Source: Bacteroidota bacterium (lineage in GTDB: Bacteria > Bacteroidota > Ignavibacteria > UBA10030 > SZUA-254). Taken from it: 64,000 bases of DNA. A program made the translations under genes and the position numbers. The stretch is taken from NCBI GenBank assembly GCA_035635475.1, contig DASQAZ010000036.1, forward strand, positions 13,066 through 77,065. Reading direction: 5' to 3'. Shown one piece after another: positions 7,433-24,807 of the stretch. The first letter of the stretch is position 1; each line of letters opens with the position of its first letter. The notes under the pieces are model-generated. The model was not told the DNA's origin. It saw only the letters and a list, made by a program, of their open reading frames with translations, and did no database searches.

Positions 7433-7458
7433 TGGCCGGACCACTGAAAGGATTCTAA

Positions 7459-8241
7459 ATGCTGCCCCCAACAACGGATACTCCAGAAAAGGGCGAAGAA
7501 GTCAACCAGGAACCCGGAACACAGGAGCTTGAGCGCGCAACCCGGTCGATTATCCTCAAACCGGAGATCGCGAGCGACATCAATGAAGGGTTCATAGACT
7601 TCCAGTTCTATAATTGTTTCAACTATTCGCTCCTGTCAGCCGACGGCAAGTCGGTCAACCTCACGCTCGGAATTACCAGCGCGAATCCGGGAGAGGGAAA
7701 GACGCTTGTCGCCTGCAATCTGGCGGTTTCTCTTGCGATGGGGTATGGGAAGGAGACCGTGCTCGTCGACCTCAACCTTGAAGAACCGAGGATCCACGAC
7801 ATCTTCGGCACGCCGAAAGGTCCCGGTCTGGTCGATGCCCTGCAACGGGGGCCGATTCAGATCTCGCGGACCGCGATCGAACACCTGTCGATTCTGACCG
7901 CAGGCGAGACGAACGGTCACTTCAAACCGAGCAAGGGAGGGAAATCGGTGGAATTCCGCAACCGCGGCGGGACCGCCCCGACCGTCGGGCTGAATCACCT
8001 GGCTGATTTCGGCAGCATCATCCTCTCGCTGGAGCAGCAATACGACTTTGTTATCGTCGATATGCCCTCGATTGAATCGAAAGGGGTTCCAATTCTGTAC
8101 GCCAACCACCTCGACGGCCTGCTCGTTGTCGTGGACTCGCGAAAGACAAGACGGGCCGATCTTGAGCGGCTCTTCCGGCGCGTTCATAAAAAGCAGGTGG
8201 TGGGATTCGTGTTTAACTGCTTTGAGTCCGATGATCACTAG
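7459..8241 (+). CDS. P-loop ATPase of the BY-kinase (CapB / Wzc C-terminal) family with degenerate kinase motifs
   Basis: Walker A GITSANPGEGKT and Walker B-like YDFVIVDMPS are present. The Walker A' position reads VLVDLNLEEP instead of the usual hhhhDxDxR(R/K)P. There is no C-terminal tyrosine cluster (ends FNCFESDDH). Confidence 0.75.
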   Translation: MLPPTTDTPEKGEEVNQEPGTQELERATRSIILKPEIASDINEGFIDFQFYNCFNYSLLSADGKSVNLTLGITSANPGEGKTLVACNLAVSLAMGYGKETVLVDLNLEEPRIHDIFGTPKGPGLVDALQRGPIQISRTAIEHLSILTAGETNGHFKPSKGGKSVEFRNRGGTAPTVGLNHLADFGSIILSLEQQYDFVIVDMPSIESKGVPILYANHLDGLLVVVDSRKTRRADLERLFRRVHKKQVVGFVFNCFESDDH

Positions 8242-8253
8242 AAGAGCATTCCT

Positions 8254-8424
8254 ATGATTACTCTCGGGGGAACCGTTTTGCTTTGCATCATAGCAATGCT
8301 GATCGGCAAACGGCGCGGTGGCTCGATGACCTGGGTCGATTACACGATCATTACGACCATAGCGCTCGCCCAGGCAGCCGTAGTGGTGTACGACATGTTC
8401 ACCCTGGAGCCCCCGACGATATGA
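8254..8424 (+). CDS. Small (56 aa) two-helix membrane protein, below the track's 60-aa listing limit
   Basis: ATG 8254 to TGA 8422-8424 translates as MITLGGTVLLCIIAMLIGKRRGGSMTWVDYTIITTIALAQAAVVVYDMFTLEPPTI. This gives two hydrophobic helices with a KRRGG loop. The stop overlaps ATG 8421 of the Wzy-like gene (ATGA). Confidence 0.35.
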   Translation: MITLGGTVLLCIIAMLIGKRRGGSMTWVDYTIITTIALAQAAVVVYDMFTLEPPTI

Positions 8425-9983
8425 GCCGTCCCGGAAACAGCACCCTCGTCTTTGAAACGGGCGCCATGTCGGGATCCGGCCTCGGTGAGTCGTCCATGAC
8501 ATTGACTCTCGCCAGTCAACGCGGACTGGTGCTCGGGTTCGCGGTGATCGGTTCGATCGTTCTCTCGGCAATCATCATCCTCACCTACGGGAACCTGGCG
8601 GCAGCCTATGCCTGTCTCGCCGCCTTCGCGGTCGCCTTTATAAGCTTTTACCGTATCGACGTCGGATTGGATATTCTCATCGGCCTTGCGATGCTTTGCG
8701 ATGAGTTTGATATTCCAGGATTTTATGCCTGGACGCTGAGGGCGGGCTACTTCACAAATCTCAAGGAGCTGTCCTATCTGATGGGCTCGGAATGGGCGGT
8801 GATGAATCCATTCGAGCTCCACCTGTTCCTCCTGTTCTTCATCTGGCTGCTTGTGGTTTGCCTGCGGCGGAACATCAAGTTCACGCCGGTCATGCTCTGG
8901 CCGGCACTCGCTTCGATGCTGGTCTGGGTTGTCGTGTCGCTGGTCCTTGGATTGCAGAGGGGAGGCGATTTCCTTCCCGCGCTGTGGGAGATCCGAGCGC
9001 TATTCTATTTTGCCCTCGTCTACGCGTTTGTCCCGCAGGTCGTCGAGTCGATGACCCAGATCCGGACGCTTCTCTGGGTCATGATTGCGACAATCTCGAT
9101 CAAGGCGTTTCAGGGGATTGCGCGTTACATTCTTATAGGCCTCACGATGGCGGGCTATCCAACGCTGACGAACCATGAGGATCCCGTCTTTATGACGACG
9201 CTCGTCATTCTGCTCCTCGGCTTCCTTCTGTTCCGGACGGGTGGATCCCAGCGCGCCGCCCTCCTTGCGCTCCTCGGACCGCTTCTTTTGGGGTTCTTTG
9301 TCGCACAGCGCCGCGCCGCCTACGCATCCGGAGCCGCATCGCTCGCCGTGTTCGTCGTGTTGCTGTCGAAAGAAGAACGGCGCCGGCTTCTCAAGAACGC
9401 GGCTCCGGCCATCCTCCTGTTCTCGCTTTACTGCGCCGTCATGTGGAATAGCGAGAGCCGGTGGGCCATGCCGGTCAAGCTGGTCAAATCCGGATTTTCC
9501 AACGATCGCGAAACGGCGGGAGAACGGTTCTATTCCAATCTCTATCGGGAGCACGAGAAATATGATCTCGCCATCACAGTAAGAAATGCCCCGGCAATCG
9601 GTATCGGATTCGGGAAAAAATACGATAAGCCGATCGAGCTCGTGCCCATCCCGTTCACGCTCAGGGATTACATTCCTCATAATCAGATCCTGTGGCTGAT
9701 CGTGAAGATGGGGGGACTGGGTTTTTTTCTATTCTGGCTATTCTTCGACGGGATCGTCTACCGGGGCGCGTCGATCGTGTCCCGGCTGCACGATCCGTAT
9801 CTGAAAGCCGTGTGCGTGATGGCTGTGGCGGCGGTCATCAACCAGATGGTGACGTCGTATTACGACCTCCAGTTAACGTATTACCGGAACATGATCTATC
9901 TTGGAGCCCTCCTCGGCCTGCTGCCGGCGATCCGGAATCTCGACCGGGACACGGCGGGTGAAGGGCAGGAGACATTGCCATGA
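8421..9983 (+). CDS. wzy: O-antigen polymerase/ligase family membrane protein (Wzy-like)
   Basis: About 10-12 hydrophobic helices with a large loop, typical of Wzy/O-antigen-ligase proteins. The position in the locus fits. The track ORF from 8283 adds an R/H-rich non-membrane extension. ATG 8421 is translationally coupled to the small upstream ORF. Confidence 0.7.
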   Translation: MSRPGNSTLVFETGAMSGSGLGESSMTLTLASQRGLVLGFAVIGSIVLSAIIILTYGNLAAAYACLAAFAVAFISFYRIDVGLDILIGLAMLCDEFDIPGFYAWTLRAGYFTNLKELSYLMGSEWAVMNPFELHLFLLFFIWLLVVCLRRNIKFTPVMLWPALASMLVWVVVSLVLGLQRGGDFLPALWEIRALFYFALVYAFVPQVVESMTQIRTLLWVMIATISIKAFQGIARYILIGLTMAGYPTLTNHEDPVFMTTLVILLLGFLLFRTGGSQRAALLALLGPLLLGFFVAQRRAAYASGAASLAVFVVLLSKEERRRLLKNAAPAILLFSLYCAVMWNSESRWAMPVKLVKSGFSNDRETAGERFYSNLYREHEKYDLAITVRNAPAIGIGFGKKYDKPIELVPIPFTLRDYIPHNQILWLIVKMGGLGFFLFWLFFDGIVYRGASIVSRLHDPYLKAVCVMAVAAVINQMVTSYYDLQLTYYRNMIYLGALLGLLPAIRNLDRDTAGEGQETLP

Positions 9984-10786
9984 ACCTCAGAACTCCTCAG
10001 CCGCGATCGATCTTCCTCCTGGGCACCCGCGTTGACAACATCGACGAATGCACCGCGCTTCGCATGGCGATTGGGTTTGCCGCCCATCGTGACGGTCTGC
10101 CTGCCCGAACGGTGTGTTTTACCAACGTTCACACCATCTGTGAGGCGAGGCGCGACCGTACATTGATGCATTGCGTTAATCTCGCGGATCTGGTTCTGCC
10201 CGACGGGAGCGGATTGAAAATCGCCGGCCGGATTTTTGGCACCCCCATCCGCGAAAACCTCAATGGAACCGACTTTACACCCAAAGTTCTCGATGCCGCG
10301 CAGCAGAACGGCCTCAGCGTTTATCTTCTCGGCGCCCAGCTGGGAAGGGTGGTCTCGTGCAGGGCAAACCTTCTGAGGCAATACCCGAATTTAAAGATCG
10401 TGGGACTGCATCACGGCTATTTCACTGCGGATGATGAACAGGATGTCATCCGGGACATCAATGCGAAGAAGCCGGATATTCTCCTTGTTGCGCTCGGCAC
10501 CCCACGACAGGAAAAATGGATTTCGAAAAATGCAAGATGCCTGAACGTCGGAGTCTGCCTCGCGGTGGGGGGGCTATTCGACTTTCTCTCCGGCACCGTC
10601 GAACGCGCCCCGGCCTGGATGCGGCGGGCGGGAATTGAATGGATCTTCCGTCTCCTTCAGGAACCGCGGCTGAAATGGAAACGGGTGTTTCTCGAAATCC
10701 CGATGTTCCTGGCCCTGGTGATCGCCAAACGGATTGTTCCGCGGAAGCTCCGGATGCTTCATGATCGAAGGGTAGCGCTCCGATGA
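9980..10786 (+). CDS. WecB/TagA/CpsF family glycosyltransferase (GT26)
   Basis: Family blocks seen: LPDGSGL, NGTDF, YLLGA, LVALGTPRQEKW, AVGGLFDFLSG..ERAPAWMRRAGIEWIFRLLQEPRLKWKR. ATGA overlap with the upstream gene. Confidence 0.9.
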   Translation: MNLRTPQPRSIFLLGTRVDNIDECTALRMAIGFAAHRDGLPARTVCFTNVHTICEARRDRTLMHCVNLADLVLPDGSGLKIAGRIFGTPIRENLNGTDFTPKVLDAAQQNGLSVYLLGAQLGRVVSCRANLLRQYPNLKIVGLHHGYFTADDEQDVIRDINAKKPDILLVALGTPRQEKWISKNARCLNVGVCLAVGGLFDFLSGTVERAPAWMRRAGIEWIFRLLQEPRLKWKRVFLEIPMFLALVIAKRIVPRKLRMLHDRRVALR

Positions 10787-12282
10787 CAATCGATGCCGCC
10801 CGATCGGTCACGAAGAACGCCGCCGTCATGATGGGCTCTCAGGTCGTGACGTGGATCTCCACGTTCATCCTCATGCTCTTCCTTCCCCGCTATCTCGGCA
10901 GCGAGGAATACGGAAGGTTGTATCTCGCGATCTCGGTCGGGATGATCATCCAGATTATCATCGAGTTTGGCGGCAACTACTACATCCCGAAGGAGGTCTC
11001 GCGGGATCGGGAAAGCGCCCCCTCGCTGGTCATGAATTTCATTCTCATTCGAATCCTCCTCTGGGTTGTCTCAATTCTGCTCCTCGCCGGGTTTGCGAAT
11101 TTCGCCAGCTACCCCCGGGAGGTCAAAGGGTTGCTTTTTATTATCGGCACCGCGAAGCTCTGGGAAGGGATCGCCGGAGTGGTGCGCAATTGCCTCCAGG
11201 GATTTGAAAAAATGGAATACACATCGGCTGCCGCGATCGTCGAACGGACGTTTCTCACTGCGGTTGGCGTCGTTGCGCTTTGCCTGGGGGCGGGAACGGC
11301 GGTGATTGCGGCGATCATGGCCGTAAGTACGCTCCTGAATTTCCTGACCGTCGCGAAATTCTTTCGCCGGTTTGTGCCCCGGCTTCCCCGCTTCGATCCT
11401 GCGGCTGCGCTACGGATCATGAGGTCGTGTTTGCCCTACTTTCTGTATTCAGTGTTTGCCGTTGTGTACTACCGTGTCGACGCCGTAATGCTTTCGCTCA
11501 TGGCGCCGGAGCCGGAAGTGGGATGGTACGGTGCGGCGTATCGTTTTTTTGACGTCCTCATGTTTCTGCCGAGCATCATCACGACGGCCCTGTTTCCCGT
11601 GTTGTCACGGCTATGGATCCAGGACGAAGCGGTCCTCGGAAGGACCTCGAACCGCTGCCTCGACTTTGTGATCCTTGCCGCGATTCCCGTTGGCGTTTGC
11701 ACGTTCGCGTACGCCGAACAGATCATTCAATTCTTCTTCGGAATTAAGGAATACGGGCCGTCGGTCATCATTCTTCGCATTTTTTCGTTCGGCATCCTCA
11801 TGCTCTACATCGATATGATTCTGGGGACGATGTTATTCGCTTCCGACAGGCAGCGGCAGTGGACGGTCGTGGCGTTCATTGCCTTGGTGCTGAATCCTCT
11901 GCTTAATTATGTGCTGATTCCGATCGCCGAATCCCGGACGGGCAATGGAGGCATCGGAGCCGCTCTGGCGACGCTCCTGACCGAAGTTGTCGTCATGATT
12001 GCGGCGCTGAGGATCATGCCGGCACACCTCCTCGGAACCTCGTGGATTTACTCGACCGCGCGGGGCGCCGGCGCCGGGGTGCTGATGGTGATTGCGATCG
12101 TACTCGGGAACCGGGCGTCACTGCCATGGGTACCGGCCGGCATCATCGCGATGGGCCTGTACATTGCAGCGCTCCTGGCGATGCGCGCCTTTCGCCCCGC
12201 CGAGCTTGCATTTTTCCAGGTCTTTTTTTCCAGCCGTAACTTGAAGACCATTTTCCCGACACAAAGAGAGATGAGCGCATGA
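10783..12282 (+). CDS. wzx: Wzx-type oligosaccharide flippase (MOP superfamily polysaccharide biosynthesis protein)
   Basis: 499 aa with ~12-14 TM helices. The N-terminus KNAAVMMGSQVVTWISTFILMLFLPRYLGSEEYG is typical of the family. ATGA overlaps on both sides. Confidence 0.85.
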   Translation: MTIDAARSVTKNAAVMMGSQVVTWISTFILMLFLPRYLGSEEYGRLYLAISVGMIIQIIIEFGGNYYIPKEVSRDRESAPSLVMNFILIRILLWVVSILLLAGFANFASYPREVKGLLFIIGTAKLWEGIAGVVRNCLQGFEKMEYTSAAAIVERTFLTAVGVVALCLGAGTAVIAAIMAVSTLLNFLTVAKFFRRFVPRLPRFDPAAALRIMRSCLPYFLYSVFAVVYYRVDAVMLSLMAPEPEVGWYGAAYRFFDVLMFLPSIITTALFPVLSRLWIQDEAVLGRTSNRCLDFVILAAIPVGVCTFAYAEQIIQFFFGIKEYGPSVIILRIFSFGILMLYIDMILGTMLFASDRQRQWTVVAFIALVLNPLLNYVLIPIAESRTGNGGIGAALATLLTEVVVMIAALRIMPAHLLGTSWIYSTARGAGAGVLMVIAIVLGNRASLPWVPAGIIAMGLYIAALLAMRAFRPAELAFFQVFFSSRNLKTIFPTQREMSA

Positions 12283-13538
12283 GAATTCTGCACCTGATAC
12301 CTTACTCCCCCATTCCCCCCACCTTCGGGGGAGCCCTGCGCAACTATCACCTCCTGAAGCACATGGCGGCGAACCACGATGTGACCGTGCTGTTATTCGG
12401 TACGCCCGAGGATGCCGACTCGGTTGCCGGGGGTTTTCATCTGCCGGGCGACCGCGTCCGGGTCGTACGAAAGTCCTGGATCCGAACCCGGTGGCGGCTC
12501 GGGCAAATGTATGCAATGGCAACCCCTTACAGTTTTTTCCATCTCATGATCGGGCGATCGGGCAGGATGCAGGAGGCGATCGACGAGGTGCTTGCCGCCG
12601 GGGAGTTCGACATCGTGCAGACTGAATTCACGCCGATGGGGTGTTACAAGCTAAGGACCTCGGCGGTGAAAATCCTGGACGCCCACAATGTAGAGTACCA
12701 GAATCACCTCCGGATGTCCGTGCACGCGAACTCCCTGATCAGACGGCTCTGGTACAGGCGTGAGACCTATTTGCTGAAAAGGGAAGAGACGCGGGCCTGC
12801 CGGCAGCACGATGCCGTGTTTGCAACATCCGCCCGTGATCTGGAACTTCTGGAGAAACTCTCGCCGGGCGTTCCGAAATTCGTCATCCCCAACGGCGTCG
12901 ATGCATCATACTTTAAGGCAGCCGACCAGACTCCGGCATCGCCCTCGCTCGTATTCACGGGGATGATGGCGTACGTTCCAAATTCCGACGGGATGTTGTA
13001 TTTCTTGGACGAAATCTTTCCGCTGATCAAAAAGAAGGTTCCCGGGGTAACAATCACCATCGTCGGAAACCGCCCGCCCCGGGAATTATTAAGGAGGGCC
13101 TCGGACGATGTCATCGTCACCGGTTACGTGGACGACGTTCGCCCGTTCGTCGAGCGCGCCGCCGTCTACGTCGCCCCGCTGCGCATCGGGAGCGGAACAC
13201 GATTGAAAATTCTGGAAGCTTTATCTATGAAGAAACCGGTCGTCACGACCAGCATCGGGTGCGAGGGGCTGGACGTCGTCGACGGGGAATCGGCTCTCGT
13301 TGCCGATGAGCCCGAAGCGTTTGCCTGCCGCGTGATCGAGCTGCTTCATAGCGACCGGTTGCGCCGGAAATTGATGCGAACCGGATCTGAGCTGGTGCGG
13401 GAAAAGTACGATTGGCGCATCGTGCACAAGCGGCTCGATGAGGCCTACTGCGAAGTCCTGCGCAGCGCGCGCATCCCGGCCGGCGCGGACGCGGATCGAG
13501 ATCGTCTCGAGTACCGTGAGCCGGCTTACGTAACGTAA
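12279..13538 (+). CDS. Glycosyltransferase family 4 (GT-B, group 1)
   Basis: C-terminal block VTGYVDDVRPFVERAAVYVAPLRIGSGTRLKILEALSMKKPVVTTSIGCEGLDVVDGESALV includes the E-x7-E motif. Confidence 0.9.
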   Translation: MRILHLIPYSPIPPTFGGALRNYHLLKHMAANHDVTVLLFGTPEDADSVAGGFHLPGDRVRVVRKSWIRTRWRLGQMYAMATPYSFFHLMIGRSGRMQEAIDEVLAAGEFDIVQTEFTPMGCYKLRTSAVKILDAHNVEYQNHLRMSVHANSLIRRLWYRRETYLLKREETRACRQHDAVFATSARDLELLEKLSPGVPKFVIPNGVDASYFKAADQTPASPSLVFTGMMAYVPNSDGMLYFLDEIFPLIKKKVPGVTITIVGNRPPRELLRRASDDVIVTGYVDDVRPFVERAAVYVAPLRIGSGTRLKILEALSMKKPVVTTSIGCEGLDVVDGESALVADEPEAFACRVIELLHSDRLRRKLMRTGSELVREKYDWRIVHKRLDEAYCEVLRSARIPAGADADRDRLEYREPAYVT

Positions 13539-13551
13539 GTCTCTTCCACCG

Positions 13552-14451
13552 ATGAAAGGAGAATTCTGCGTGGCAACAGATGGAAGCGTGGTGTACACCG
13601 ATCACCGCGCCATGCCCTCAATCAAAGTGTTGATGTACCACCGGATCGTAGACGACGGAAGCCTTGCACAACGGCACTGGACCTGCGTCCACGTGAACAA
13701 TCTCGCTCAACAGCTTCACATGCTCGATCGCTGCGGGTTTACCACGATCACCTTCAACGATTACCGGCTCTCCCTGTCCGGCGAGCTGAATTTGCCGCGA
13801 AAACCCGTCGTTATTAGTTTCGACGACGGGTATCTCGACACCTACCGGCTGGCGTTTCCCGTCTTGCGGGAACTGGGAATGAAAGCCGTCGTCTTCGTTG
13901 TCGCCGGCAAGAATGTCAAGTCCAACATATGGGACCGGCATCTCGGGGTTCCGCCGGCCCCGCTTCTTGAGCCCAGACATCTGGTGGAGATGTCGGGGGA
14001 GGGGATCGAAATCGGTTCTCATTCCCTCACCCATCCGCGCCTGACCGATCTGCCGGACGATGCAGCGTGGGAAGAGCTATCCCACTCGAAGCTTCTTCTC
14101 GAGATGCTCCTTGACTCCGCGATTAACAGCATCTCGTATCCCTACGGGCTCGTCAATCAGAATATCAAGAACATGGCCCGGGAAGTCGGCTATACGATCG
14201 GGTGCGGCGTCTCCAGCGGTCCCGTACGCTTCGGCGACGACCTGCTCGAAGTGCGGAGGACTACTATTAAAAATACGACCGGACCTCTGCGGTTCGGATT
14301 GCGGCTGCTTCCGTTCTTCCAACGATATTCCTTTCTCCGGTGGAAAACCTCGCAGGCGCTCTCGAGCCGGGCAACTCCCGCACGCGGGAGGAATCTGGTG
14401 GATATCGCGATGTCGACCGTTCCGGGGAATGGGTTCGATCATGAAACCTGA
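13552..14451 (+). CDS. Polysaccharide deacetylase (NodB/CE4 family)
   Basis: VISFDDGYLDTY (motif 1), GSHSLTHPRL (H-S-x-x-H) and SYPYG are present. A later start at ATG 13612 (MPSIKVLMYHRI) is possible. Confidence 0.85.
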   Translation: MKGEFCVATDGSVVYTDHRAMPSIKVLMYHRIVDDGSLAQRHWTCVHVNNLAQQLHMLDRCGFTTITFNDYRLSLSGELNLPRKPVVISFDDGYLDTYRLAFPVLRELGMKAVVFVVAGKNVKSNIWDRHLGVPPAPLLEPRHLVEMSGEGIEIGSHSLTHPRLTDLPDDAAWEELSHSKLLLEMLLDSAINSISYPYGLVNQNIKNMAREVGYTIGCGVSSGPVRFGDDLLEVRRTTIKNTTGPLRFGLRLLPFFQRYSFLRWKTSQALSSRATPARGRNLVDIAMSTVPGNGFDHET

Positions 14452-15808
14452 CACTCCACAAATGGAAGCCCCGGAATATCAAGACATTGCGGTTCCAACG
14501 CGCGAGCCGGAGCTCGTCACAATGGAGATTGTGCGATCGGAGAATGAGTTCGCCGCGTTGTCTCAATCGTGGGAGCGGCTTACCCAGCTCTCGAAGGCCC
14601 GCATCTACCAGACATTCGACTGGCAGTGGACATGGTGGAGCCATTTCGGGTCAGGACTCGATTTGCACATCATCGCTCTCCGGCACAACGGGGAGATCAT
14701 CGGCCTTGCGCCGTTCTGCGTGGAAACCGGATCTGTCTGGGGAGTTCCGTATCGCCGGTGCCTGAAGCTCGTTGGCTGCAATATTCGAATTAAAGAACCC
14801 TCCGGGATCCCCGTCACGTACGATGTGTCGGACTATCTCGACATCATCATCCACCCGGGATATATCGGCCCGGCGCTGGAGTCGATCGCTCAGTACCTGC
14901 GCGATCACCTCTCGGAATATGATGCGATTGAGTTCACAAATGTGCCTGACGAGAGCCTGATCATGAAGGCGCTGGTTCCGCGGCTGAAAGAAAGCGGCTT
15001 CAGGATTTTGGCCTCGCGCGCGGACGTCTGTCCCCGCCTGAAAGTGCCATCTTCCATAGAGGCGTACCTCCAATCACTGGGGCCGAATGTTCGCCGCCGG
15101 CTTCTCCAGGCAAAGACGGCTGCGAACGGGGGCGGGTTGTTCACGATTGAACGCGCCGAGGGTCCGGCCCTCTGGCCCGGTTCGGTTCGGGAGCTGGCGG
15201 CTCTGCACCAGCAGAGATGGAACCGGATTGGTTATCCGGGGCTTTTTTATGATGCGCGGTTCGGGCGCTTTATCAACGACGTTGTCGGGCGCATGCAGGG
15301 ACGGGGCCGCGTATGGTTGAAAATCGCAACATCGGGCGGAAAGACGGTCGCAGTGCGGCTGGGATTCTGCTTCAATGACGCGTTCTATGACTACCTTTCG
15401 GGTTTCGATGATCAATCCCCCGCCGCGAAGCGCAGGCCGGGTATCGCCCTGCTGCTTTCAATGATCGAAGATGCGAGAGGGTTGAATGCGGAGACTGTCG
15501 ACTTTCTTCGCGGAGACGAAGCGTACAAGTTTGAGATGAGTTCCGAGGCCGCGCACAACTGGAAGGTCACCGCATTTTTGCCGGCGCATGCCTCCATTCC
15601 GCGGGCGATTCTGTCGTTTGTTGACGGGGGAATCCGCTGGTGGTGGAAAGAACGGCTCCTCATGCGCGTCCAATCTCAACAATATCCTTTCCCCTCTTCG
15701 GTCATGAGGTATTTCCGCTTCCGAACAGAGTCGGTTGCCCGGAAAATCGGGCGTGCGGCAGGCCGAGGTCCCGGATTCAAATCGGAGAAACTCAATGTTC
15801 ATGCATGA
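14441..15808 (+). CDS. CelD/BcsL/FemAB-like GNAT acyltransferase (Acetyltransf_6-type), paralog 1
   Basis: ATG 14441 is in frame with track ORF 14060, whose first 127 codons overlap the deacetylase. Family blocks: FDWQWTWWSHFG...LHIIALRHNGEIIGLAPF and GFCFNDAFYDYLSGFD...VDFLRGDEAYK. Confidence 0.8.
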   Translation: MKPDTPQMEAPEYQDIAVPTREPELVTMEIVRSENEFAALSQSWERLTQLSKARIYQTFDWQWTWWSHFGSGLDLHIIALRHNGEIIGLAPFCVETGSVWGVPYRRCLKLVGCNIRIKEPSGIPVTYDVSDYLDIIIHPGYIGPALESIAQYLRDHLSEYDAIEFTNVPDESLIMKALVPRLKESGFRILASRADVCPRLKVPSSIEAYLQSLGPNVRRRLLQAKTAANGGGLFTIERAEGPALWPGSVRELAALHQQRWNRIGYPGLFYDARFGRFINDVVGRMQGRGRVWLKIATSGGKTVAVRLGFCFNDAFYDYLSGFDDQSPAAKRRPGIALLLSMIEDARGLNAETVDFLRGDEAYKFEMSSEAAHNWKVTAFLPAHASIPRAILSFVDGGIRWWWKERLLMRVQSQQYPFPSSVMRYFRFRTESVARKIGRAAGRGPGFKSEKLNVHA

Positions 15809-18785
15809 AGAGGTTCACTCGCATCTGAACTATGTGCTGGATCCGCCGGCCTCCGCAGAAGCTGGGATCCGGCGGGAGAACTCGCGCCCCTGGTCGAGAA
15901 ATCTGCTGCACTCATTCCGGGAGCTCCTGGATCACCTGCGGGATCTGGCCGCCGCTTCTATGAATTCAAAAAACGACCGGAAAATCACCCTTGACGGGTA
16001 TCTAACTACCTGTGCTCTCTGGCAGATTCTCGAGGATTTCCTTCACCGGGGATTGCTGCGGGTCGAGCTCAGAATGAAGACGGCTGCTCGCGAGGCCGTG
16101 AATCCCGTTCGGAGCGCCCGCTCCCCGAGGAACTGGATTCAGGTACTACAAAGGGGCATCCGGTCTCAGGCGTTGCTCATTCCATCGAGAGCGGCCGATG
16201 TTCTTGCCGCTTCCGCCGTCGAATTGCGCATGAGACTGCGCGAGTCCGATTTAGCGCGAGCCTCCGAAATTTTGAAGAGCGCGGTCGAAAGGATGGCTTC
16301 AGAGGCCGTCGCATCCGAACAATGCACGGGGTCCGGGGAGCAATCAGATGCACCATTGCAAGAGGCCGCACAAACGGTGCTGGAACAATCCTACCCGGAC
16401 ACGCTCCTGAATCGCGTGCTGAAAATTCCGGCATGTTTCAAGGATTTCGACTGCCACCCGGATGACTGCGGGGTCTTCGCAAACAAGATCGCGGAAACTT
16501 TTGAAGACCGCCACGAACCACTCACCGTCCTTGGAATCAGGACTTCCGGCTCGTATCTGGCTCCGCTCTGTGCAGCCTACCTGCGGAAGGAGGGATTCAG
16601 AGATGTCACGATTGCGACCATCCGGCCCGATGTGAGTCTCCTTTCCCCGGAGCAGAGCCTGCTTATCGGGAGAGCGCAGGCGGGAACGATTTTAATCATC
16701 GACGACCCACCCTTCACCGGCGACGGCCTTCTCTCGTGCATCAGGATGCTGGAACGCATGGGAATAGCGGCGAACAGGATTATTGCGCTTGTCTTTGAAG
16801 ATCCGGAGGCGCCGTTCTTTAGCGTAGATGAAATGACGGGCACTTCAACCTGGAAGGAACTCCGCTCCCGCATCCGGACGATTCTGTTGCCGAAGCGCGA
16901 GTGGCGGATCCGGAGAGTCACCGGTATGCTGCAGATGGGCGGAGCGGATATGAGAATCCTGAAACTCCACGGCTTTTCTGTCCAAGAAGCGCCCGCAGGA
17001 ACGGGCGATCCGGCATCGGCTGGGGGCGGCCAACGTTTTCGCGTGCGGCGGGCGCGGCGTCATGAAAATTTAAAGCTTGATAGTACGCTCGAAACTCCGG
17101 GAGGGGCCGCCTCTTCCTCGTTTATTGCCAGGGGAACCGGGTTCGGCTGGTTTGAAGATCATGCGCTGGAAATCGCGCGCCGAATACCGGATTTCGCGCC
17201 GCCGGTCTCGCGGCTTGCAGAGGGCCTGCATCTCAGATCATGGATCGAGGGCCGCACCGCCGCGGAAAACCCGGCTCTCTGTGATGAACAGTTCGTCCGG
17301 CATGCTGCCAGATATGTCGCGGAACGATCCCGGGCCCTCCCCCTGGACAATGAGGGGAATCGCGACCTGGAAGACCGGAAGACAGGATGGCACCTGCTGG
17401 CGCGGACGTTCGGGCGGAGTTATCTGATGCTGCGCTCTTTTTCCTACTATGCGCTGCGCAAACAATTGTCGAGAATATGCCTCGGCGCGCCCCGGGCCGT
17501 GATCGACGGCCGGATGGGACCTGCCGAGTGGATCGTGCCGGCCGGCGGAGGGCACCCGCTCAAGCTGGACTTTGATGAACATGCATTCGACAGGAGCGAC
17601 CTCTCGGTTTTCGATCCCGTCATCGATCTGGCGGGCTTCTCGGTCGAGCACCGGCTCCCGGACCATCTGGAAAAAACGTTGATGATCGAATATATCAGCC
17701 GGAGCGGCGACACCGGAGCGTGGGAACGACTCCCAACATGCAAAATGATCGTGTGTCTTTCGGCGCAATCAGAGCTCGAATCACAGGCATTCGAAGGCGC
17801 TGCCGATCCGGCAAGGGTGACGCTCGATTTATTAGAACTTGAGCGGGTTATGTCAAAAACCGCAAACGGGTTTCTCTCGGAGGCATTCCGCCTTCAGGAG
17901 GCGCGCTGGGAGTCGGACGAAATGGTTGCGATCGATGTCGACGGCGTGCTCGAGGACAGCATCCTGGGTTTCAGCGCGATGTCGCCGGCGGCCGTGAAGG
18001 CAGTTCGTACGCTGGCGCGGCACGGTTTTCAGATTGTGCTCGCCACGGGCCGAAGTTTACCGGACATGATCGAGCGAGCGCGGATCCTGCGCCTCCGGGG
18101 CGGCATCGCAGAGTACGGATCGGTGGTCTGGGACCGGGGGCGCGATGCAACGGCCACTCTCGTGACCCCGCGGGAAATGGAACAACTTCGGAAACTCCGT
18201 GCGATTCTCGCCGATCAAGACGGGGTTTCCATCGACCCCGGTCATGAATATTCCGTCCGCGTTTTTCAGCCGGCAAAGGGCTCCCGCCGGCGGGTTGCCG
18301 CTTTCTGGCTTGAACAGATCCTGCGGCGGTGGAAGCTCGACGAAGTGCGCGTCATCAAGGGAAACTCGGTCACAGACGTGGTCGGAAAGAGCGTGAACAA
18401 GGGCGCCGGACTCCTGTACCTGAGGCGGATCTTCAATGCGCGCGAGGTTCATGCGGTCGGGGACACTCACGAAGATGTGCCGCTCTTCCGCGCCGCGGAT
18501 CATTCCTACGCGCCGGCAAGTGCGGGACCCGGCCTTGCGAGGGAGATGAGGGACGGCGATCTCTTCGTTGCGAAAGGAAAGACGGAGCGCGGGCTGTTCC
18601 AGATCGCGATGAGGATCGCCCACGGAAGAAGCCGCCGTTGTCCGCTCTGCGCGGGCGCCGATCAATGGAGCGAACCCGTTTCGATTCTCGTGCAGGCGCT
18701 GGGTCTGAGAGACAGGAGCCGTTTTCAAAAAATGTCCGATCTGATCGGCCACGACATGCTCAAGAATTTCTATGCCAGCCTTTAA
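15795..18785 (+). CDS. Three-domain fusion protein: phosphoribosyltransferase-like + protein-kinase/APH-like + HAD-IIB phosphatase-like
   Basis: PRTase block (nt ~16437-16814): LTVLGIRTSGSYLAP...GTILIIDDPPFTGDGL. Kinase-like block (nt ~17097-17774): FIARGTGFGWFEDH...VIDGRMGPAEWIV...LKLDFDEHAF...DPVIDLAGF. HAD block (nt ~17916-18539): VAIDVDGVLED, IVLATGRS, SVNKG, AVGDTHEDVPLF. Start taken as ATG 15795 or 15801, inside track ORF 15735. Confidence 0.7.
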   Translation: MFMHEEVHSHLNYVLDPPASAEAGIRRENSRPWSRNLLHSFRELLDHLRDLAAASMNSKNDRKITLDGYLTTCALWQILEDFLHRGLLRVELRMKTAAREAVNPVRSARSPRNWIQVLQRGIRSQALLIPSRAADVLAASAVELRMRLRESDLARASEILKSAVERMASEAVASEQCTGSGEQSDAPLQEAAQTVLEQSYPDTLLNRVLKIPACFKDFDCHPDDCGVFANKIAETFEDRHEPLTVLGIRTSGSYLAPLCAAYLRKEGFRDVTIATIRPDVSLLSPEQSLLIGRAQAGTILIIDDPPFTGDGLLSCIRMLERMGIAANRIIALVFEDPEAPFFSVDEMTGTSTWKELRSRIRTILLPKREWRIRRVTGMLQMGGADMRILKLHGFSVQEAPAGTGDPASAGGGQRFRVRRARRHENLKLDSTLETPGGAASSSFIARGTGFGWFEDHALEIARRIPDFAPPVSRLAEGLHLRSWIEGRTAAENPALCDEQFVRHAARYVAERSRALPLDNEGNRDLEDRKTGWHLLARTFGRSYLMLRSFSYYALRKQLSRICLGAPRAVIDGRMGPAEWIVPAGGGHPLKLDFDEHAFDRSDLSVFDPVIDLAGFSVEHRLPDHLEKTLMIEYISRSGDTGAWERLPTCKMIVCLSAQSELESQAFEGAADPARVTLDLLELERVMSKTANGFLSEAFRLQEARWESDEMVAIDVDGVLEDSILGFSAMSPAAVKAVRTLARHGFQIVLATGRSLPDMIERARILRLRGGIAEYGSVVWDRGRDATATLVTPREMEQLRKLRAILADQDGVSIDPGHEYSVRVFQPAKGSRRRVAAFWLEQILRRWKLDEVRVIKGNSVTDVVGKSVNKGAGLLYLRRIFNAREVHAVGDTHEDVPLFRAADHSYAPASAGPGLAREMRDGDLFVAKGKTERGLFQIAMRIAHGRSRRCPLCAGADQWSEPVSILVQALGLRDRSRFQKMSDLIGHDMLKNFYASL

Positions 18786-20136
18786 CAATCATCCCGGTGG
18801 ACAGCCGATGCTGAAAAAAGTGATCCTACCGGCACTGAAGGGCGAGCCGCGTTCACTGAACGGGCACTGCGAGCTCCATGTCGTGCGCACCGAAGTGGAA
18901 CTGGATGCCCTGGAGGAGCGGTGGAATGGCCTCATGAGTTGTTCCGATGTCTCCGCATTCCAGACGTTCGAGTGGCTGAGGACCTGGTGGCGGTACTTCG
19001 GGGCTAATCGGAGGCTCCACTCGCTCATTGTAACGGAAGAGGGCCGGACAATCGGCATCGCCCCGATGTTTATAGAAGACGCGAGAATCCTGGGCGTCAG
19101 GGTTGCGACGCGGCTGAGATTCATGGGCTGCGGCATCTCGGACTATTGTGATTTCATCATCGCCCGGGGGAAAGAGGAACTCGTCCTCCATGCGTTTGCG
19201 CAGTATCTGTTCGCACACTCCGGCGATTGGGATATTTTCGAAATTGCCGACGTGAACGAGCGCGCCCAGCTTTATAAAATGCTTCCGAGGCTCCTCCGTG
19301 AACGCGGCATGGGCGTCTACACGTACCAGGGGAATGTCTGTCCGAGCCTCGCGCTGCCCGATTCCTGGGATGACTTTCTCGCCGGACTCGGCCAGAAGAT
19401 GCGGCATCATCTGAAAAAGAAGAGGGAGATGCTGAATCTTCAGTACCGGACGGAGGTGGAAATCTTCAAATCGGCCTCGGACGATATCGACCTCGCCGTC
19501 AACGAATTCATTCAGATCCATGAACGGCGGTGGAAGGGCCTCGGGTTCCGGAGCGCCTTTGACGACGAGGTCCACCGGGAGTTCCACTATGAGGTCGCCC
19601 GGAGGATGGCTCGCCGCGGCTGGCTGAGGCTCTTCTTCCTCAAGGTGGACGGGCGGAGGGTCGCGGTGAGTTTTGACTTCAATTTCAACAAAAGAATTCA
19701 TGTCTATCTCTCCCATGCCTGCGGACCGGAGGAGATCATGAAGTGCAGTCCGGGTTTCCTGATCCGCTGTATTGCGATCGATCGCGGCATAGCGGAGGGC
19801 ATGGAAATCTACGACCTCCTGAGAGGAAATGAGGCCTACAAATATGAGGAGCTCAAGTGTGTCCGTAGCGAAAACTGGCTCGTGAGGGGAGTGGGATGCT
19901 CCCGCGAGTCACGGGCCCGGTTCCGGATCTTTCTCGTGCGCGAGTTCGTGATCAAGAGCTTCGATCGGATTCGCCGGGAATACCACGAGTTCAGGCGGTT
20001 CGTGATCACCAAGAAACCTTCAACGATGGCGAGTCTCCGTTTTTTCCGATCCCAACTCGTTCTTCTCTACAAATTGGCAATAAATTACTGTGAACGCTTC
20101 TTTTTCAATGAAAGCCGACACCATGCGCCGAGATGA
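18772..20136 (+). CDS. CelD/BcsL/FemAB-like GNAT acyltransferase, paralog 2
   Basis: FQTFEWLRTWWRYFG...LHSLIVTEEGRTIGIAPM and FDFNFNKRIHVYLSH...IYDLLRGNEAYK follow the same pattern as 14441-15808. Confidence 0.8.
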   Translation: MPAFNNHPGGQPMLKKVILPALKGEPRSLNGHCELHVVRTEVELDALEERWNGLMSCSDVSAFQTFEWLRTWWRYFGANRRLHSLIVTEEGRTIGIAPMFIEDARILGVRVATRLRFMGCGISDYCDFIIARGKEELVLHAFAQYLFAHSGDWDIFEIADVNERAQLYKMLPRLLRERGMGVYTYQGNVCPSLALPDSWDDFLAGLGQKMRHHLKKKREMLNLQYRTEVEIFKSASDDIDLAVNEFIQIHERRWKGLGFRSAFDDEVHREFHYEVARRMARRGWLRLFFLKVDGRRVAVSFDFNFNKRIHVYLSHACGPEEIMKCSPGFLIRCIAIDRGIAEGMEIYDLLRGNEAYKYEELKCVRSENWLVRGVGCSRESRARFRIFLVREFVIKSFDRIRREYHEFRRFVITKKPSTMASLRFFRSQLVLLYKLAINYCERFFFNESRHHAPR

Positions 20137-22847: not shown

Positions 22848-23558
22848 GTGACTGAAGTCGTTGATACTGTTGCGGGTTTGATGAAATTGGAGCGTGAATG
22901 GGACGCGCTGGCGTTGGAATTCCAGAACCCGCTACTCACCCATGAATGGTTTGCCTCCTGCGCGGCGGCGGTGAGCCCTCCCGATGAGCTGAGGATTATT
23001 CTCATCATGGACGAAGAAAAGCTCGTCGCTGCAGCACCAATGGTGATGGTTCGCCGCTGGGGCGTCCGGCGCCTGGAAATTCTCGGGAGCTCGACCCTGC
23101 AGGAACCGAGCACCTTTCTTTTCAGAGATGAAGATTCGCTCAACGAACTCCTGAGGGCGGTCAGGACCGGGGTCTCCGTGCGTGTTGTAAAAGGACAATG
23201 GTCGGACCCGAGGGGAAACGGGCTTGACTGCAGGAGAAACTTCCGCGTCCTGATCGACGCTCTCGCAGGGCGCTGCCCGCATGTGTTCGTCGGTACGCAC
23301 GATCGCCACCTCGCCCGTGAAGCGCTCACGATCCTGCGTGCCTCGGATACGCGGTGTGAACTGGAACAGATGCTCGGACTGCCCTCGATTGTGAAGAGCG
23401 CGGCAGAGCCTCTCGGGATCCCGGTCAGGGTGTATGTTCCCTTCGGCACTCCGTATCTGCCCTACAATATCCGCTACGTTTCGCATCGCCCTGCGATGAT
23501 GGCCTGGGCGCTTAATGGCCTCCTGACAGGGGGGGATTGGAACCAGGGATTGTTGTGA
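22848..23558 (+). CDS. Chimeric ORF: CelD-like N-terminal ~100 aa joined to a proline-dehydrogenase-like C-terminal half barrel; possibly a gene remnant
   Basis: The N-terminus EREWDALALEFQNPLLTHEWF...LRIILIMDEEKLVAAAPMVM matches the pattern of both CelD paralogs. The C-terminus VSVRVVKGQW, VFVGTHDRHL, ELEQMLGLP, IPVRVYVPFGTPYLPYNIRYVSHRP matches ProDH blocks (VRLVKGAY, ATHN, E.Q.L.GM, VR.Y.P.G...YL.RRL.ERP). GTG start. Confidence 0.55.
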   Translation: MTEVVDTVAGLMKLEREWDALALEFQNPLLTHEWFASCAAAVSPPDELRIILIMDEEKLVAAAPMVMVRRWGVRRLEILGSSTLQEPSTFLFRDEDSLNELLRAVRTGVSVRVVKGQWSDPRGNGLDCRRNFRVLIDALAGRCPHVFVGTHDRHLAREALTILRASDTRCELEQMLGLPSIVKSAAEPLGIPVRVYVPFGTPYLPYNIRYVSHRPAMMAWALNGLLTGGDWNQGLL

Positions 23559-23565
23559 AGAGCCG

Positions 23566-24807
23566 GTGACTATGATAACCGCAATCGAAATTGTCCTTCT
23601 TTCTATTCTTGGCCTCCCTCTCTGTTATCTTGCCCTCCTCAGCTTCCTTGCCCTCAATCCGAAACAGCGCCGGAATTCGGGCAATTCCCGCCTGCGCCGA
23701 TTCGCCATCGTCGTGCCCGCACACGACGAGGAGCGGACCATCGATGCAACGCTCCGAAGCCTGCTCGCGATCGATTACCCGCGCCAGATGTACGATCTCG
23801 TCGTCATTGCCGACAACTGCGATGACGGCACCGCTCAAGTTGCGAATCGTCCGGGAGTCCAGGTTCTGGAGAGAAACGATCCCCATCTGCGCGGGAAAGG
23901 TTATGCGCTGCGCTGGGGGTTTGATGCACTGCTCTCATTGTCCCGGTACGACGCTGTCGTTGTCGTGGATGCCGACAGTACCGCCTCCCGGAATTTTCTT
24001 TCGGTCATGAATGATTACCTTGAAACCGGCGCGGAGGCGGTCCAGAGCAGCGACCTGGTCAGGCCGCTCCCCGGGTCCTGGAGTTCGGAGATCGTTCGCA
24101 TCGGCTTTCTGCTCTATAATTACGTGCGGCCGCTCGGCAGGATGGCTCTCGGATGCTCGGCGGGTTTGCGTGGAAACGGCATGTGCTTCGCCGTCGACAC
24201 GCTTCGCCGGGTTCCCTGGGTCGCATTCTCCGTCGCCGAGGATCTCGAGTATGGCCTGGAATTGTTGCTCCGGGGGGTTGGCGTCGTTTTTGCGCCTGAA
24301 GCGGTCGTGATTGCCGCGATGCCTCAGCATGCTGCAAACGCCCGGAGCCAGCGCGCGCGGTGGGAAATGGGCAGATTCCCGCTGGTCAAAAAGTATGCAG
24401 GCCGGCTTCTCCGCACTGCCGCGTACGCACGCTCGTATCGATGTTTCGATGCGTTCATCGATCTTGTCACTCCGCCGCTCGTCAATTTGCTCATGGCCGT
24501 TTCAGCGATGTTCATGATCTCCGTCATCCTGTTGGGGCTCGGCTATTGGGAGCTGGGGCCTGTGATCTGGCTTTGGGCCGGGTTGATGGGGTTGGGGATG
24601 GTACATCTGCTGGTCGGAATTCAGGCCGCCCGGGGGTCTGTGGAAGATCTGAAAGTTCTACTTCATCTTCCCCGGTACGCTTTCTGGAAACTCCTGCTCT
24701 ACGCCGGGATGATCAAAAAGCGCGTGCCAAATGAATGGATTCGCACCCACCGTGAAGCCGGCGACGAGCCGCTTCCGGGGGAACAATCGTCGGGGAGTCC
24801 CGCCTAG
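23566..24807 (+). CDS. Membrane-embedded family 2 glycosyltransferase of the processive-synthase type
   Basis: Blocks seen: FAIVVPAHDEE, VVIADNCDDGT, RGKGYAL, VVVVDADS (DxD), GNGMCF, EDLEYGLEL, QRARWEMG (Q-x-x-RW). One N-terminal and several C-terminal TM helices. Confidence 0.85.
   Translation: MTMITAIEIVLLSILGLPLCYLALLSFLALNPKQRRNSGNSRLRRFAIVVPAHDEERTIDATLRSLLAIDYPRQMYDLVVIADNCDDGTAQVANRPGVQVLERNDPHLRGKGYALRWGFDALLSLSRYDAVVVVDADSTASRNFLSVMNDYLETGAEAVQSSDLVRPLPGSWSSEIVRIGFLLYNYVRPLGRMALGCSAGLRGNGMCFAVDTLRRVPWVAFSVAEDLEYGLELLLRGVGVVFAPEAVVIAAMPQHAANARSQRARWEMGRFPLVKKYAGRLLRTAAYARSYRCFDAFIDLVTPPLVNLLMAVSAMFMISVILLGLGYWELGPVIWLWAGLMGLGMVHLLVGIQAARGSVEDLKVLLHLPRYAFWKLLLYAGMIKKRVPNEWIRTHREAGDEPLPGEQSSGSPA

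Follow-up and report, generated by a model that had tools for sequence, protein, structure and literature searches.

A widespread family of bacterial proteins joining phosphoribosyltransferase-like, kinase-like and HAD phosphatase domains in polysaccharide loci

Introduction

What reaction would be carried out by a single polypeptide that combines a phosphoribosyltransferase (PRTase)-like domain, a kinase-like domain and a HAD-IIB phosphatase domain? This question is raised by a gene at positions 15795 to 18785 of a 64,000-nucleotide stretch of DNA from a Bacteroidota bacterium (GTDB lineage Bacteria; Bacteroidota; Ignavibacteria; UBA10030; SZUA-254), taken from GenBank assembly GCA_035635475.1 (contig DASQAZ010000036.1, positions 13,066 to 77,065 of the forward strand). 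The whole stretch is called the window, its coordinates are used throughout, and the product of the gene is called the target. An earlier note, made from the letters of this DNA alone, had described the three-domain fusion. Here we report that the target belongs to a real, widespread and uncharacterised family of multi-domain enzymes, whose most likely identity is a variant of glycan ribofuranosylation that depends on phosphoribosyl pyrophosphate (PRPP) and includes an added atypical kinase.

The incorporation of ribofuranose and its epimers into bacterial surface glycans has been resolved only from 2022 onward, and two solutions are known (gPRT/CriT and UbiA-type enzymes), each with a HAD phosphatase. 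If the proposed identity is correct, the family would represent a differently built solution, in which a classical PRTase is combined with an extra kinase-like step, and many proteins labelled 'hypothetical' or 'HAD family hydrolase' would gain a function.

The fusion is conserved across phyla

The open reading frame (ORF) begins with an ATG at 15795 and ends with a stop at 18785 on the + strand, yielding 996 amino acids (aa). Its regions were delimited by profile matches, AlphaFold2 (AF2) models and conservation:

15795..18785, + strand: whole ORF, 996 aa, comprising helical bundle, PRTase-like, kinase-like and HAD-IIB domains and a Cys tail (ORF listing)
15888..16409, + strand: N-terminal helical bundle, aa 32-205 (AF2 helices at aa 41-205; invariant columns)
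16428..16949, + strand: type I PRTase-like Rossmann core, aa 212-385 (PF00156, PDB profile, AF2)
17049..17909, + strand: choline-kinase/APH-type kinase-like domain, aa 419-705 (AF2, Foldseek, conservation tables)
17910..18599, + strand: Cof-type HAD-IIB phosphatase, aa 706-935 (PF08282 2e-11; TIGR01487, TIGR00099, TIGR01484)
18600..18782, + strand: C-terminal tail, aa 936-996, with H943-x5-C949-x2-C952 (conservation; motif at nt 18621-18650)

Checking of the translation located all of the motifs that had been quoted in the earlier note: the acidic loop ILIIDDPPFTGDGL at aa 299-312 (nt 16689-16730), VIDGRMGPAEW (aa 569-579), LKLDFDEHAF (aa 589-598) and DPVIDLAGF (aa 607-615) in the kinase region, and DVDGV (aa 714-718), TGR (aa 751-753), K869 and GDTHED (aa 889-894) in the HAD region. 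A metagenomic protein of equal length (P0001) is 99% identical to the target, and a soil Ignavibacteria metagenome-assembled genome (L002) encodes a protein that is 92% identical. Since all regions of the target are conserved across 175 family representatives, the set used for conservation throughout, the fusion is an observation far beyond chance. An assembly or frameshift artefact as the origin of the fusion was ruled out by the conservation of the architecture across phyla.

A word-indexed search recovered 25 clusters of the family. The corresponding profile search, started from aligned kinase-like domains, yielded a single truncated protein that was nearly identical, and an exhaustive hidden Markov model (HMM) search was used instead; with the kinase-domain profile it identified 1638 representatives at E<=1e-3 and 444 clusters (50% identity) at E<=1e-30. 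The best 150 representatives are mostly 880-1000 aa long with the kinase-like domain equally placed, and most of them keep the full-length architecture. At least 231 species were found to carry relatives when species-representative genomes were scanned, the hosts falling among the Ignavibacteria/Bacteroidota, Rokubacteria, Chloroflexota, Dormibacterota and many Actinomycetes, the cultured actinomycete hosts including Streptomyces, Nocardia, Amycolatopsis, Pseudonocardia, Rhodococcus and Terrabacter.

No functional name was found among the family members, cluster look-ups included, the labels being 'hypothetical' or 'HAD family hydrolase'. No family model in Pfam or NCBIfam covers the family, a literature search found no paper on it, and a plasmid collection contained no homolog of the target. 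The earlier remark that no characterised protein of this domain order was known is therefore upheld by the names, the family models and the literature. The opposing possibility, that the architecture is already common and functionally annotated, proved right in its first half, as the species and cluster counts make plain, and wrong in its second.

The N-terminal half contains a type I PRTase-like domain

PF00156 matched the whole protein with 24.9 bits, below the cut-off of 26.3, and the N-terminal 400-aa segment alone with 26.8 bits, above it; 11 of 21 relatives were also matched at E<=0.1, the best at E 2e-8. The pyrophosphate (PPi) loop, G247-I-R249-T250-S251-G252, follows the first core strand and is invariant family-wide. 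The PRPP motif, I299-L-I-I-D303-D304-P-P-F-T308-G309 (ILIIDDPPFTG), fits the type I PRTase pattern, deviating from it by a Pro-Pro in place of the usual aliphatic pair, and D303, D304, P305, P306, T/S308 and G309 are essentially invariant. Across phyla, no other part of the protein is conserved as strictly as these two elements.

The family profile aligned to PyrR, to the OPRT domain of UMP synthase and to APRT in the PDB, covering both motifs. PyrR was the best PDB sequence match of the region, its GIKTRGIYLA aligning with the PPi loop (GvRTSGSYLAP) and its VILVDDVLYTG with the PRPP motif (vlvvDDPPvtG). In the AF2 model the core consists of five parallel strands (243-248, 271-276, 298-302, 329-335 and 361-366) with pLDDT > 90, and Foldseek searches with this core retrieved HGPRT, XPRT and OPRT at probabilities of 0.98-0.99 and TMt of 0.39-0.47, but with weak E-values of 0.03-0.2. 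The intact PPi loop and PRPP motif, with a borderline match to PF00156, bear out the PRTase-like call made earlier. From sequence and model we conclude that the N-terminal half holds a predicted type I PRTase-like, PRPP-binding domain, and we infer that it is catalytic.

The core is preceded by a bundle with the motif LDxYLxxxxLxQxxEDxLHR, in which L48, Q77 and D81 are invariant. The region had been described as helical and devoid of recognisable motifs; the AF2 model places helices at aa 41-205, and searches with Foldseek and a PDB profile returned designed helical bundles only, so that it remains without a known family match. In type I PRTases an acceptor-specific hood occupies the place where the target has this bundle, which is a candidate for an acceptor-binding 'hood'.

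The HAD domain carries a complete catalytic motif set

PF08282 matched the C-terminal domain with 44.5 bits against a cut-off of 20.9, while TIGR01484 reached 38.1 bits, slightly under its cut-off of 41.8; by its NCBIfam matches the domain falls with the sugar-phosphate phosphatases of HAD-IIB/Cof type. Motifs I (D714-V-D716), II (T751), III (K869) and IV (D890 and D894 in GDTHED) are near-invariant in the family, and with the Pfam match above cut-off they sustain the HAD-IIB assignment with a complete motif set. The closest solved chains are the sugar-phosphate phosphatases YidA, TA0175, YbiV-type enzymes and SupH. Judged by these motifs, the domain is almost certainly an active phosphomonoesterase. 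In the tail that follows, C949 and C952 are invariant and the His stands at 943 or 944, shifted by one between clades; the H-x5-C-x2-C motif is possibly a metal-binding knuckle.

The kinase-like domain departs from canonical kinases

The middle of the protein was assigned by its fold, as aa 400-700 gave no sequence-profile match, PF01636 being without a match at E<=1 (Pfam, NCBIfam and PDB sequences). Alignment with hhalign to canonical APH domains taken from the neighbouring cassettes, as sequences and as profiles (single-sequence, global and local), gave no significant result. An AF2 model of the domain built on 21 relatives reached a pLDDT of 82.2 and a pTM of 0.84, and produced 95 Foldseek matches in the PDB at E<=1e-3. 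The best was human ChoK-alpha (7nb1, E 1.3e-6, probability 1.00), and further top matches, also at probability 1.00, were Plasmodium ethanolamine kinase (2qg7), LicA (4r78), APH(9)-Ia (3i0o), Rv3168 and 25-hydroxysteroid kinase. APH(3')-Ia was found lower among the matches, at the same probability, with a TMq of ~0.4 versus ~0.5 for enzymes of the ChoK/LicA type. On this model we regard the kinase-like fold of aa 419-705 as certain.

Because the profile-profile alignment to APH was not significant, residues were mapped through the AF2 fold, the secondary-structure order and a local alignment to LicA (E 0.06), in which the family profile aligns DPvfDLA with the LicA motif, and the mapping is not a superposition. 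The order of elements is a long helix, a short strand, the D571 loop, strands 579-582 and 589-590, D592 and the DPxxDLA helix. This protein-kinase-like strand order would make D571 the catalytic-loop Asp and D592 the DFG-equivalent Asp. The key residues of the domain are R421, H423, R446 (beta3), G447-x-G449-x-G451, R511, D571, E578, K590, D592, D607 and D611; those selected family-wide are R421, H423, G447-x-G449-x-G451, R511, W532, D571, K590, D607, D611, Y633 and R645.

The catalytic loop, V-I-D571-G-R-M-G-P-A-E-W, is ~3 residues longer than an HxDxxxxN loop. This Brenner motif is absent from the family, the His position being occupied by V, I or L throughout and the Asn at +5 missing, and only the Asp is invariant. 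The view taken in the earlier note, a kinase-like fold with an altered HGD-type loop, is thus upheld by the model and by the family-wide loss of His and Asn. The bilobal fold, the catalytic-loop Asp, a DFG-like Asp after beta8 and DPxxDLA are common to the target and to choline/ethanolamine kinases, LicA and APH (PF01636). However, the GxGxG of the target lies after beta3 and not between beta1 and beta2 as in PF01636 kinases, and its invariant R421, H423, R511 and K590 are outside the canonical kinase set. The target therefore fails two defining features of APH/choline kinases, the Brenner motif and profile membership, though the fold is common to both. Even if the ribosylation proposed below is wrong, a kinase-like domain that has lost the textbook His and Asn and gained an invariant Arg, His and Lys of its own is noteworthy.

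In the clade of the window (15 sequences), D571, E578 and D592 are each present in 15/15, and position 446 is K or R in 14/14, being R in the target; from these residues and the model, a working kinase is plausible in this clade. Whether the catalytic Asp and Lys are retained had been left as a check, and the outcome was mixed: D571 is kept family-wide, and a basic residue at 446 and D592 in the window's clade, but the canonical Lys and the DFG-Asp are not conserved family-wide, and the role of the kinase domain is therefore uncertain.

These departures fit an alternative in which the HAD domain alone is catalytic, while the other two domains, as pseudo-enzymes, would either detect PRPP, (p)ppGpp or nucleotides or anchor the protein on the flippase/synthase complex, coupling glycan decoration to the metabolic state. 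The His and Asn of the kinase loop are gone in all members, the distant clade is variable at the beta3 basic residue and at the DFG-like Asp, PRTase-fold proteins such as PyrR are regulators, and 47 of 79 family loci contain a separate, canonical APH kinase (see below). Yet D571, K590, R421, H423, R511 and the Gly-rich loop are near-invariant, which implies that an active or ligand-binding site has been conserved, the residues for PRPP binding do not vary, and the window's clade has the full kinase residue set with no separate APH gene in the window. Taken together, we consider this alternative improbable.

The gene lies within a polysaccharide assembly locus

The genes surrounding the target are as follows:

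6098..13538, + strand: Wzx/Wzy-type assembly genes, namely Wzz/GNVR, P-loop kinase-like, Wzy_C, WecG-family glycosyltransferase, Wzx flippase and GT1 (Pfam)
13552..14451, + strand: PgaB/IcaB-like polysaccharide N-deacetylase (Pfam 1.8e-25; TIGR03938 4.9e-24)
14435..15808, + strand: upstream PF13480 (FemAB/CelD-like tandem-GNAT) gene (Pfam 1.6e-24)
18772..20136, + strand: downstream PF13480 (FemAB/CelD-like) gene (Pfam 1.3e-20)
20090-21451, + strand: ATP-grasp ligase-like gene 1 (NCBIfam PRK12767/PRK06849-like; no Pfam match)
21455-22813, + strand: ATP-grasp ligase-like gene 2 (NCBIfam PRK12767/PRK06849-like; ATPgrasp_Ter best in Pfam)
23566..24807, + strand: EpsU-like GT2 glycosyltransferase (Glyco_tranf_2_3 2.9e-27; NF041865 264.7 bits, below cut-off)

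The target gene shares 14 nt with the PF13480 gene on either side (15795-15808 upstream, 18772-18785 downstream), and is therefore an internal member of an operon. This arrangement suggests translational coupling of the target with the two flanking PF13480 proteins, in agreement with a relative (P0002) in which PF13480 is fused N-terminally to the target family. The synteny of the window locus is retained in L084, including both PF13480 genes and the Wzx/Wzy genes. A separate APH gene is not present in the window, which fits the retention of all canonical residues by the kinase-like domain of the target. ORF 20090-21451 had been considered as the counterpart of this gene and was refuted on comparison, being ATP-grasp-like. 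The two tandem ATP-grasp genes are mutually divergent, and the match of ATPgrasp_Ter to the second (27.9 bits) is below the Pfam cut-off.

Genes accompanying the family elsewhere were counted in 79 genomic loci with phmmer, using seeds from both clades; the counts are lower bounds, as many loci are cut by contig ends. Stop-to-stop ORFs from the 79 loci could not be clustered cleanly, as shadow ORFs and single-linkage chaining interfered in the high-GC genomes, and pre-called contexts were used. The seed-based counts were:

GT2: 50 of 79 loci
separate APH-family gene: 47 of 79 loci
protein with ~14 transmembrane segments (14-TM protein), of no known family: 39 of 79 loci
deacetylase: 35 of 79 loci with mixed seeds, 41 of 79 with the window protein as query
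polytopic membrane module of ~450 aa: 31 of 79 loci
PF13480: 30 of 79 loci
GH16: 29 of 79 loci
SDR epimerase: 16 of 79 loci
ATP-grasp: 5 of 79 loci, chiefly those of the window's clade

The deacetylase was the most frequently conserved neighbour in searches with the window's own genes. In the separate APH kinases the motifs HGDxxPxN and DWE are present in canonical form. An SDR epimerase gene lies directly downstream of the target family gene in L081 and L086, and in the latter the family gene is flanked by a bona fide MurJ (272 bits versus a cut-off of 235.6) and an APH gene, with an HpnA-like SDR on the other side.

Several members of the family are fused to additional domains. Besides the PF13480 fusion, Wzx-type flippases are fused to the N-terminus (P0006) or the C-terminus (P0153), a PAP2 lipid phosphatase is fused in P0168, and the ~450-aa polytopic module, which is also found alone, is fused in P0049. 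These independent fusions to flippase, PAP2, PF13480 and membrane module locate the enzyme on the cytoplasmic side of the membrane, in association with lipid-linked glycan export.

Two further observations concern the distant cassettes. In L080 (4766-9022), L082 (12745-15168) and L081 (3892-5235), canonical APH kinases are fused to the ~450-aa polytopic module, a type of kinase-transporter fusion that, to our knowledge, has not been described. The 14-TM neighbour (L082 5101-7257, and also the C-terminal part of L080 4766-9022) is ~700 aa long with a soluble C-terminal part. Searches of Pfam, NCBIfam and PDB sequences found no relative of it, GT-C enzymes included; it might be a GT-C-like transferase or polymerase.

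The ATP-grasp and PF13480 genes of the window bear on another explanation, in which the family makes a soluble ribosylated precursor instead of acting on the glycan itself. Here the PRTase would form a C-N bond with an amine or heterocycle, the kinase and HAD domains would adjust phosphorylation, and the nucleoside-like or aminoacyl-carrier product would pass to the ATP-grasp enzymes before FemAB-like transfer to an amine exposed by the deacetylase. Such a scheme would suit the intact type I PRTase motifs, the C-N bonds formed by classical PRTases and the small soluble sugar phosphates on which Cof-type HAD-IIB enzymes typically act, as well as the two ATP-grasp genes downstream, one with ATPgrasp_Ter as its best Pfam match, the PF13480 genes overlapping the target on both sides and the P0002 fusion. 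Anantharaman, Iyer and Aravind are said to have proposed in 2012 a module of PRTase, ATP-grasp and HAD for a nucleoside-like metabolite in Ter operons, and in the Ter-linked module (PRTase_2/PRTase_3, ATPgrasp_Ter and HAD) these three activities co-occur as in the window. However, the context of the target is polysaccharide assembly, unlike that module, ATP-grasp genes occur in only 5 of the 79 loci, and the flippase, PAP2 and membrane-module fusions point to lipid-linked substrates at the membrane. Assignment of the target to the Ter-type module itself was ruled out, the PRTase_2 model (PF15609) matching only 1 of 21 members at E 0.026 and Pfam annotation revealing no ter genes in the window. 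Overall, a soluble precursor appears unlikely.

A second explanation involving the ATP-grasp genes is a phosphate-handle cycle like that of C. jejuni HS:2 capsule amidation, in which the kinase would phosphorylate ethanolamine or serinol, an ATP-grasp ligase would couple the amine to a uronic acid of the glycan, the HAD domain would remove the phosphate, and the PRTase-like domain would be a PRPP- or nucleotide-binding regulator. The best Foldseek matches of the kinase-like domain are choline/ethanolamine kinases and LicA, two ATP-grasp ligases lie downstream, and the HAD phosphatase is complete, all of which would be expected. In work of the Raushel laboratory, Cj1438 and Cj1435 are reportedly an amide ligase and a phosphatase whose substrate is a phosphorylated amine. 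Against such a cycle, ATP-grasp genes are missing from most family loci, the PRPP motif and PPi loop are conserved more strictly than expected of an accessory sensor, and the canonical kinase residues are not kept family-wide; we regard it as a long shot. For the C. jejuni system, Cj1438 and Cj1435 are reported to provide the remaining three polymerisation reactions (PMC12096443).

Comparison with PRPP-dependent pentofuranosylation systems

Transfer of ribose-5-phosphate (Rib-5-P) from PRPP to a glycan or to polyprenyl phosphate, followed by dephosphorylation by a HAD enzyme, is established for gPRT-PRP of Klebsiella and PPPRS-PRP of C. youngae (PMC11127046). The CriT-CrpP part of Bcs3, the capsule polymerase of Haemophilus influenzae type b, likewise carries out PRPP-dependent transfer of Rib-5-P to a glycan and then HAD dephosphorylation (PMC10299916), and the C-terminal domain of C. 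jejuni Cj1432 puts Rib-5-P on a glycan (PMC12096443). UbiA-type PPPRS and DPPRS load Rib-5-P on polyprenyl phosphate (PMC11127046). In each case a phosphatase next takes off the 5-phosphate, and the pentose may be converted by optional SDR epimerases. The gPRT, CriT and PPPRS systems all use a HAD-superfamily 5-phosphatase (PMC11127046, PMC10299916). The gPRT-PRP system is known from Klebsiella O-antigen and from a Thermobacillus composti structure (Kelly et al. 2022; see PMC11127046 and PMC11194591).

Like gPRT-PRP, the target is one cytoplasmic polypeptide, encoded in a polysaccharide locus, that has a PRPP-type transferase together with a HAD-superfamily phosphatase, and the proposed two-step logic, Rib-5-P transfer followed by removal of the 5-phosphate, is the same. 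In contrast, gPRT diverges substantially from known PRTases whereas the target core matches the classical PF00156 motifs, and the known gPRT-PRP members are without a kinase-like domain. The published bioinformatic marker of the gPRT-PRP family is its PRP-type HAD domain. Membership of this family was ruled out, as no Bcs3 or T. composti chain was matched at E<=10 by the full-length protein or by its isolated HAD domain, the matches being to Cof-type IIB phosphatases only.

Bcs3 (CroT-CrpP-CriT-SH3b) also resembles the target in being a multi-enzyme polypeptide with a PRTase-like core, a HAD domain and a third catalytic domain. CriT, which uses PRPP, has a five-stranded PRTase-like core ringed by helical bundles, and CrpP is the HAD enzyme that removes the 5-phosphate (PMC10299916). 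The general plan of CriT and target is alike, a PRTase-like core plus a helical bundle, a likeness of layout and not a direct superposition. The order of domains differs, the phosphatase preceding the transferase in the two solved or dissected examples, Bcs3 and Cj1432, whereas the target has the PRTase first, the kinase-like domain in the middle and the HAD domain last. Moreover, instead of a kinase-like fold Bcs3 has as its third domain a GT-B ribitol-phosphate transferase, which adds a phosphate-containing unit, and CrpP has a flap-inserted C1 cap and only the first Asp of DxD, while the target has a C2-type IIB cap and the full DxD.

A further parallel is provided by the three-component pentofuranosylation systems (UbiA-type synthase with PRP, flippase, GT-C and optional SDR epimerase, as in C. 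youngae O1/O2 and mycobacterial DPPR/DPA; PMC11127046). In distant family loci the PRPP-type enzyme with its HAD domain adjoins a MOP/MurJ-type module, the 14-TM protein and an SDR epimerase, much as in these systems. However, the three-component transferase is a UbiA-family membrane enzyme and the target a soluble type I PRTase-like domain, and the window's clade is without the three-component membrane partners, having Wzx/Wzy instead. The mycobacterial 5-phosphatase Rv3807c belongs to the PAP2 family, and the target relative P0168 has a PAP2 fusion.

A bolder proposal is that the family is a third, independently evolved route by which PRPP-derived pentofuranose enters bacterial envelope glycans. 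In place of gPRT/CriT or a UbiA-type enzyme, a soluble classical type I PRTase would transfer Rib-5-P to a phosphate, either made by the kinase or belonging to polyprenyl phosphate, and the HAD domain would trim the 5-phosphate to give a phosphodiester-linked ribofuranose or a lipid-P-ribofuranose donor; the donor would be flipped by the fused or neighbouring MOP/MurJ-type module and used outside by the 14-TM protein. We consider this route doubtful. If it were true, many Actinomycetota, Chloroflexota, Dormibacterota and Ignavibacteria would be expected to have it.

The best reading of these comparisons, by analogy, is that the target would work like gPRT-PRP, CriT-CrpP and PPPRS-PRP while belonging to none of them.

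A proposed function in glycan ribofuranosylation

A PRPP-binding core, a helical bundle and a complete HAD domain occur together in polysaccharide loci, and phosphoribosyl transfer followed by 5-dephosphorylation is therefore the best supported function. By analogy with the published systems, we give a probability of roughly 40% to PRPP-dependent phosphoribosyl transfer to an intermediate of a lipid-linked glycan pathway, with subsequent removal of the 5-phosphate by the HAD domain. The idea put forward in the earlier note, that the fused domains channel the making of a phosphorylated or ribosylated precursor used to decorate the exopolysaccharide, accordingly appears plausible in view of the gene context and the published PRPP-plus-HAD systems.

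In this model the target would be a cytoplasmic enzyme with three catalytic modules, working at the membrane on a lipid-linked polysaccharide pathway. The PRTase-like domain, capped by the helical bundle, would bind PRPP as the donor and transfer ribose-5-phosphate to an oxygen nucleophile. This oxygen might belong to a sugar, as a hydroxyl of the lipid-linked repeat unit, to a phosphate group or to the polyprenyl phosphate that serves as carrier. The Cof-type HAD-IIB domain would then take off the 5-phosphate to leave a ribofuranosyl residue, and the kinase-like domain would use ATP to phosphorylate the acceptor, as a priming reaction, or another hydroxyl. In a variant, the phosphate made by the kinase would attack PRPP, in the manner of decaprenyl phosphate in the mycobacterial pathway, giving a phosphodiester-linked ribofuranose. 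The flanking FemAB-like, deacetylase and ATP-grasp enzymes would decorate the same glycan.

Several points weigh against the ribofuranosylation model. Classical type I PRTases make C-N and not C-O bonds, and PRTase-like domains can serve ligand sensing alone. The Foldseek support for the PRTase fold is weak, with periplasmic-binding and B12-binding Rossmann folds interleaved among the matches, and neither Bcs3 nor the T. composti enzyme is among the top 50 for this region. The HAD domain belongs to the Cof-type IIB enzymes and has a C2 cap; small soluble sugar phosphates are the usual substrates of this type, and PDB sequence searches found no sequence relation of it to known PRP domains. None of the ribofuranosylation systems described so far is known to involve a kinase. 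Finally, among the 159 sequences of the distant clade, 77 have Glu, 51 Lys and 10 Arg at position 446, and the DFG-like D592 is kept in only 80 of the 159, so that, going by these sequences, the family-wide role of the kinase-like domain may not be phosphotransfer. The use of K446 and D592 as markers of clean active and inactive subfamilies was dropped, the two positions being only weakly correlated.

Were the ribofuranosylation model to hold, the family would mark a conserved cassette (GT2, deacetylase, FemAB-like protein, APH-flippase fusion and 14-TM protein) that is without a described product. Hundreds of soil and actinomycete species carry the family, and the envelope glycans of cultured Streptomyces, Nocardia, Amycolatopsis and Pseudonocardia are poorly known.

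Other features of the window

Between the ATP-grasp genes and the GT2 gene, an ORF of 236 aa (22848-23558, + strand) has weak similarity to the C-terminal part of proline dehydrogenase, scoring 21 bits in Pfam, below cut-off, and 33.7 bits in NCBIfam. The polysaccharide locus ends at a gene on the opposite strand (24811-26175, - strand) that encodes a full-length member of glycoside hydrolase family 47 (Pfam E 3e-126), a family best known from the alpha-mannosidases of the eukaryotic endoplasmic reticulum and Golgi. A gene further along encodes a 786-aa protein (26735-29095, - strand) whose N-terminal half contains a NagB-like domain (glucosamine-6-phosphate deaminase, PRK02122; match at aa 200-392), while the remainder has no assignment. 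Finally, the segment 34001-36000 has a GC content of 0.49, compared with ~0.57 elsewhere in the window, and may have been acquired horizontally.

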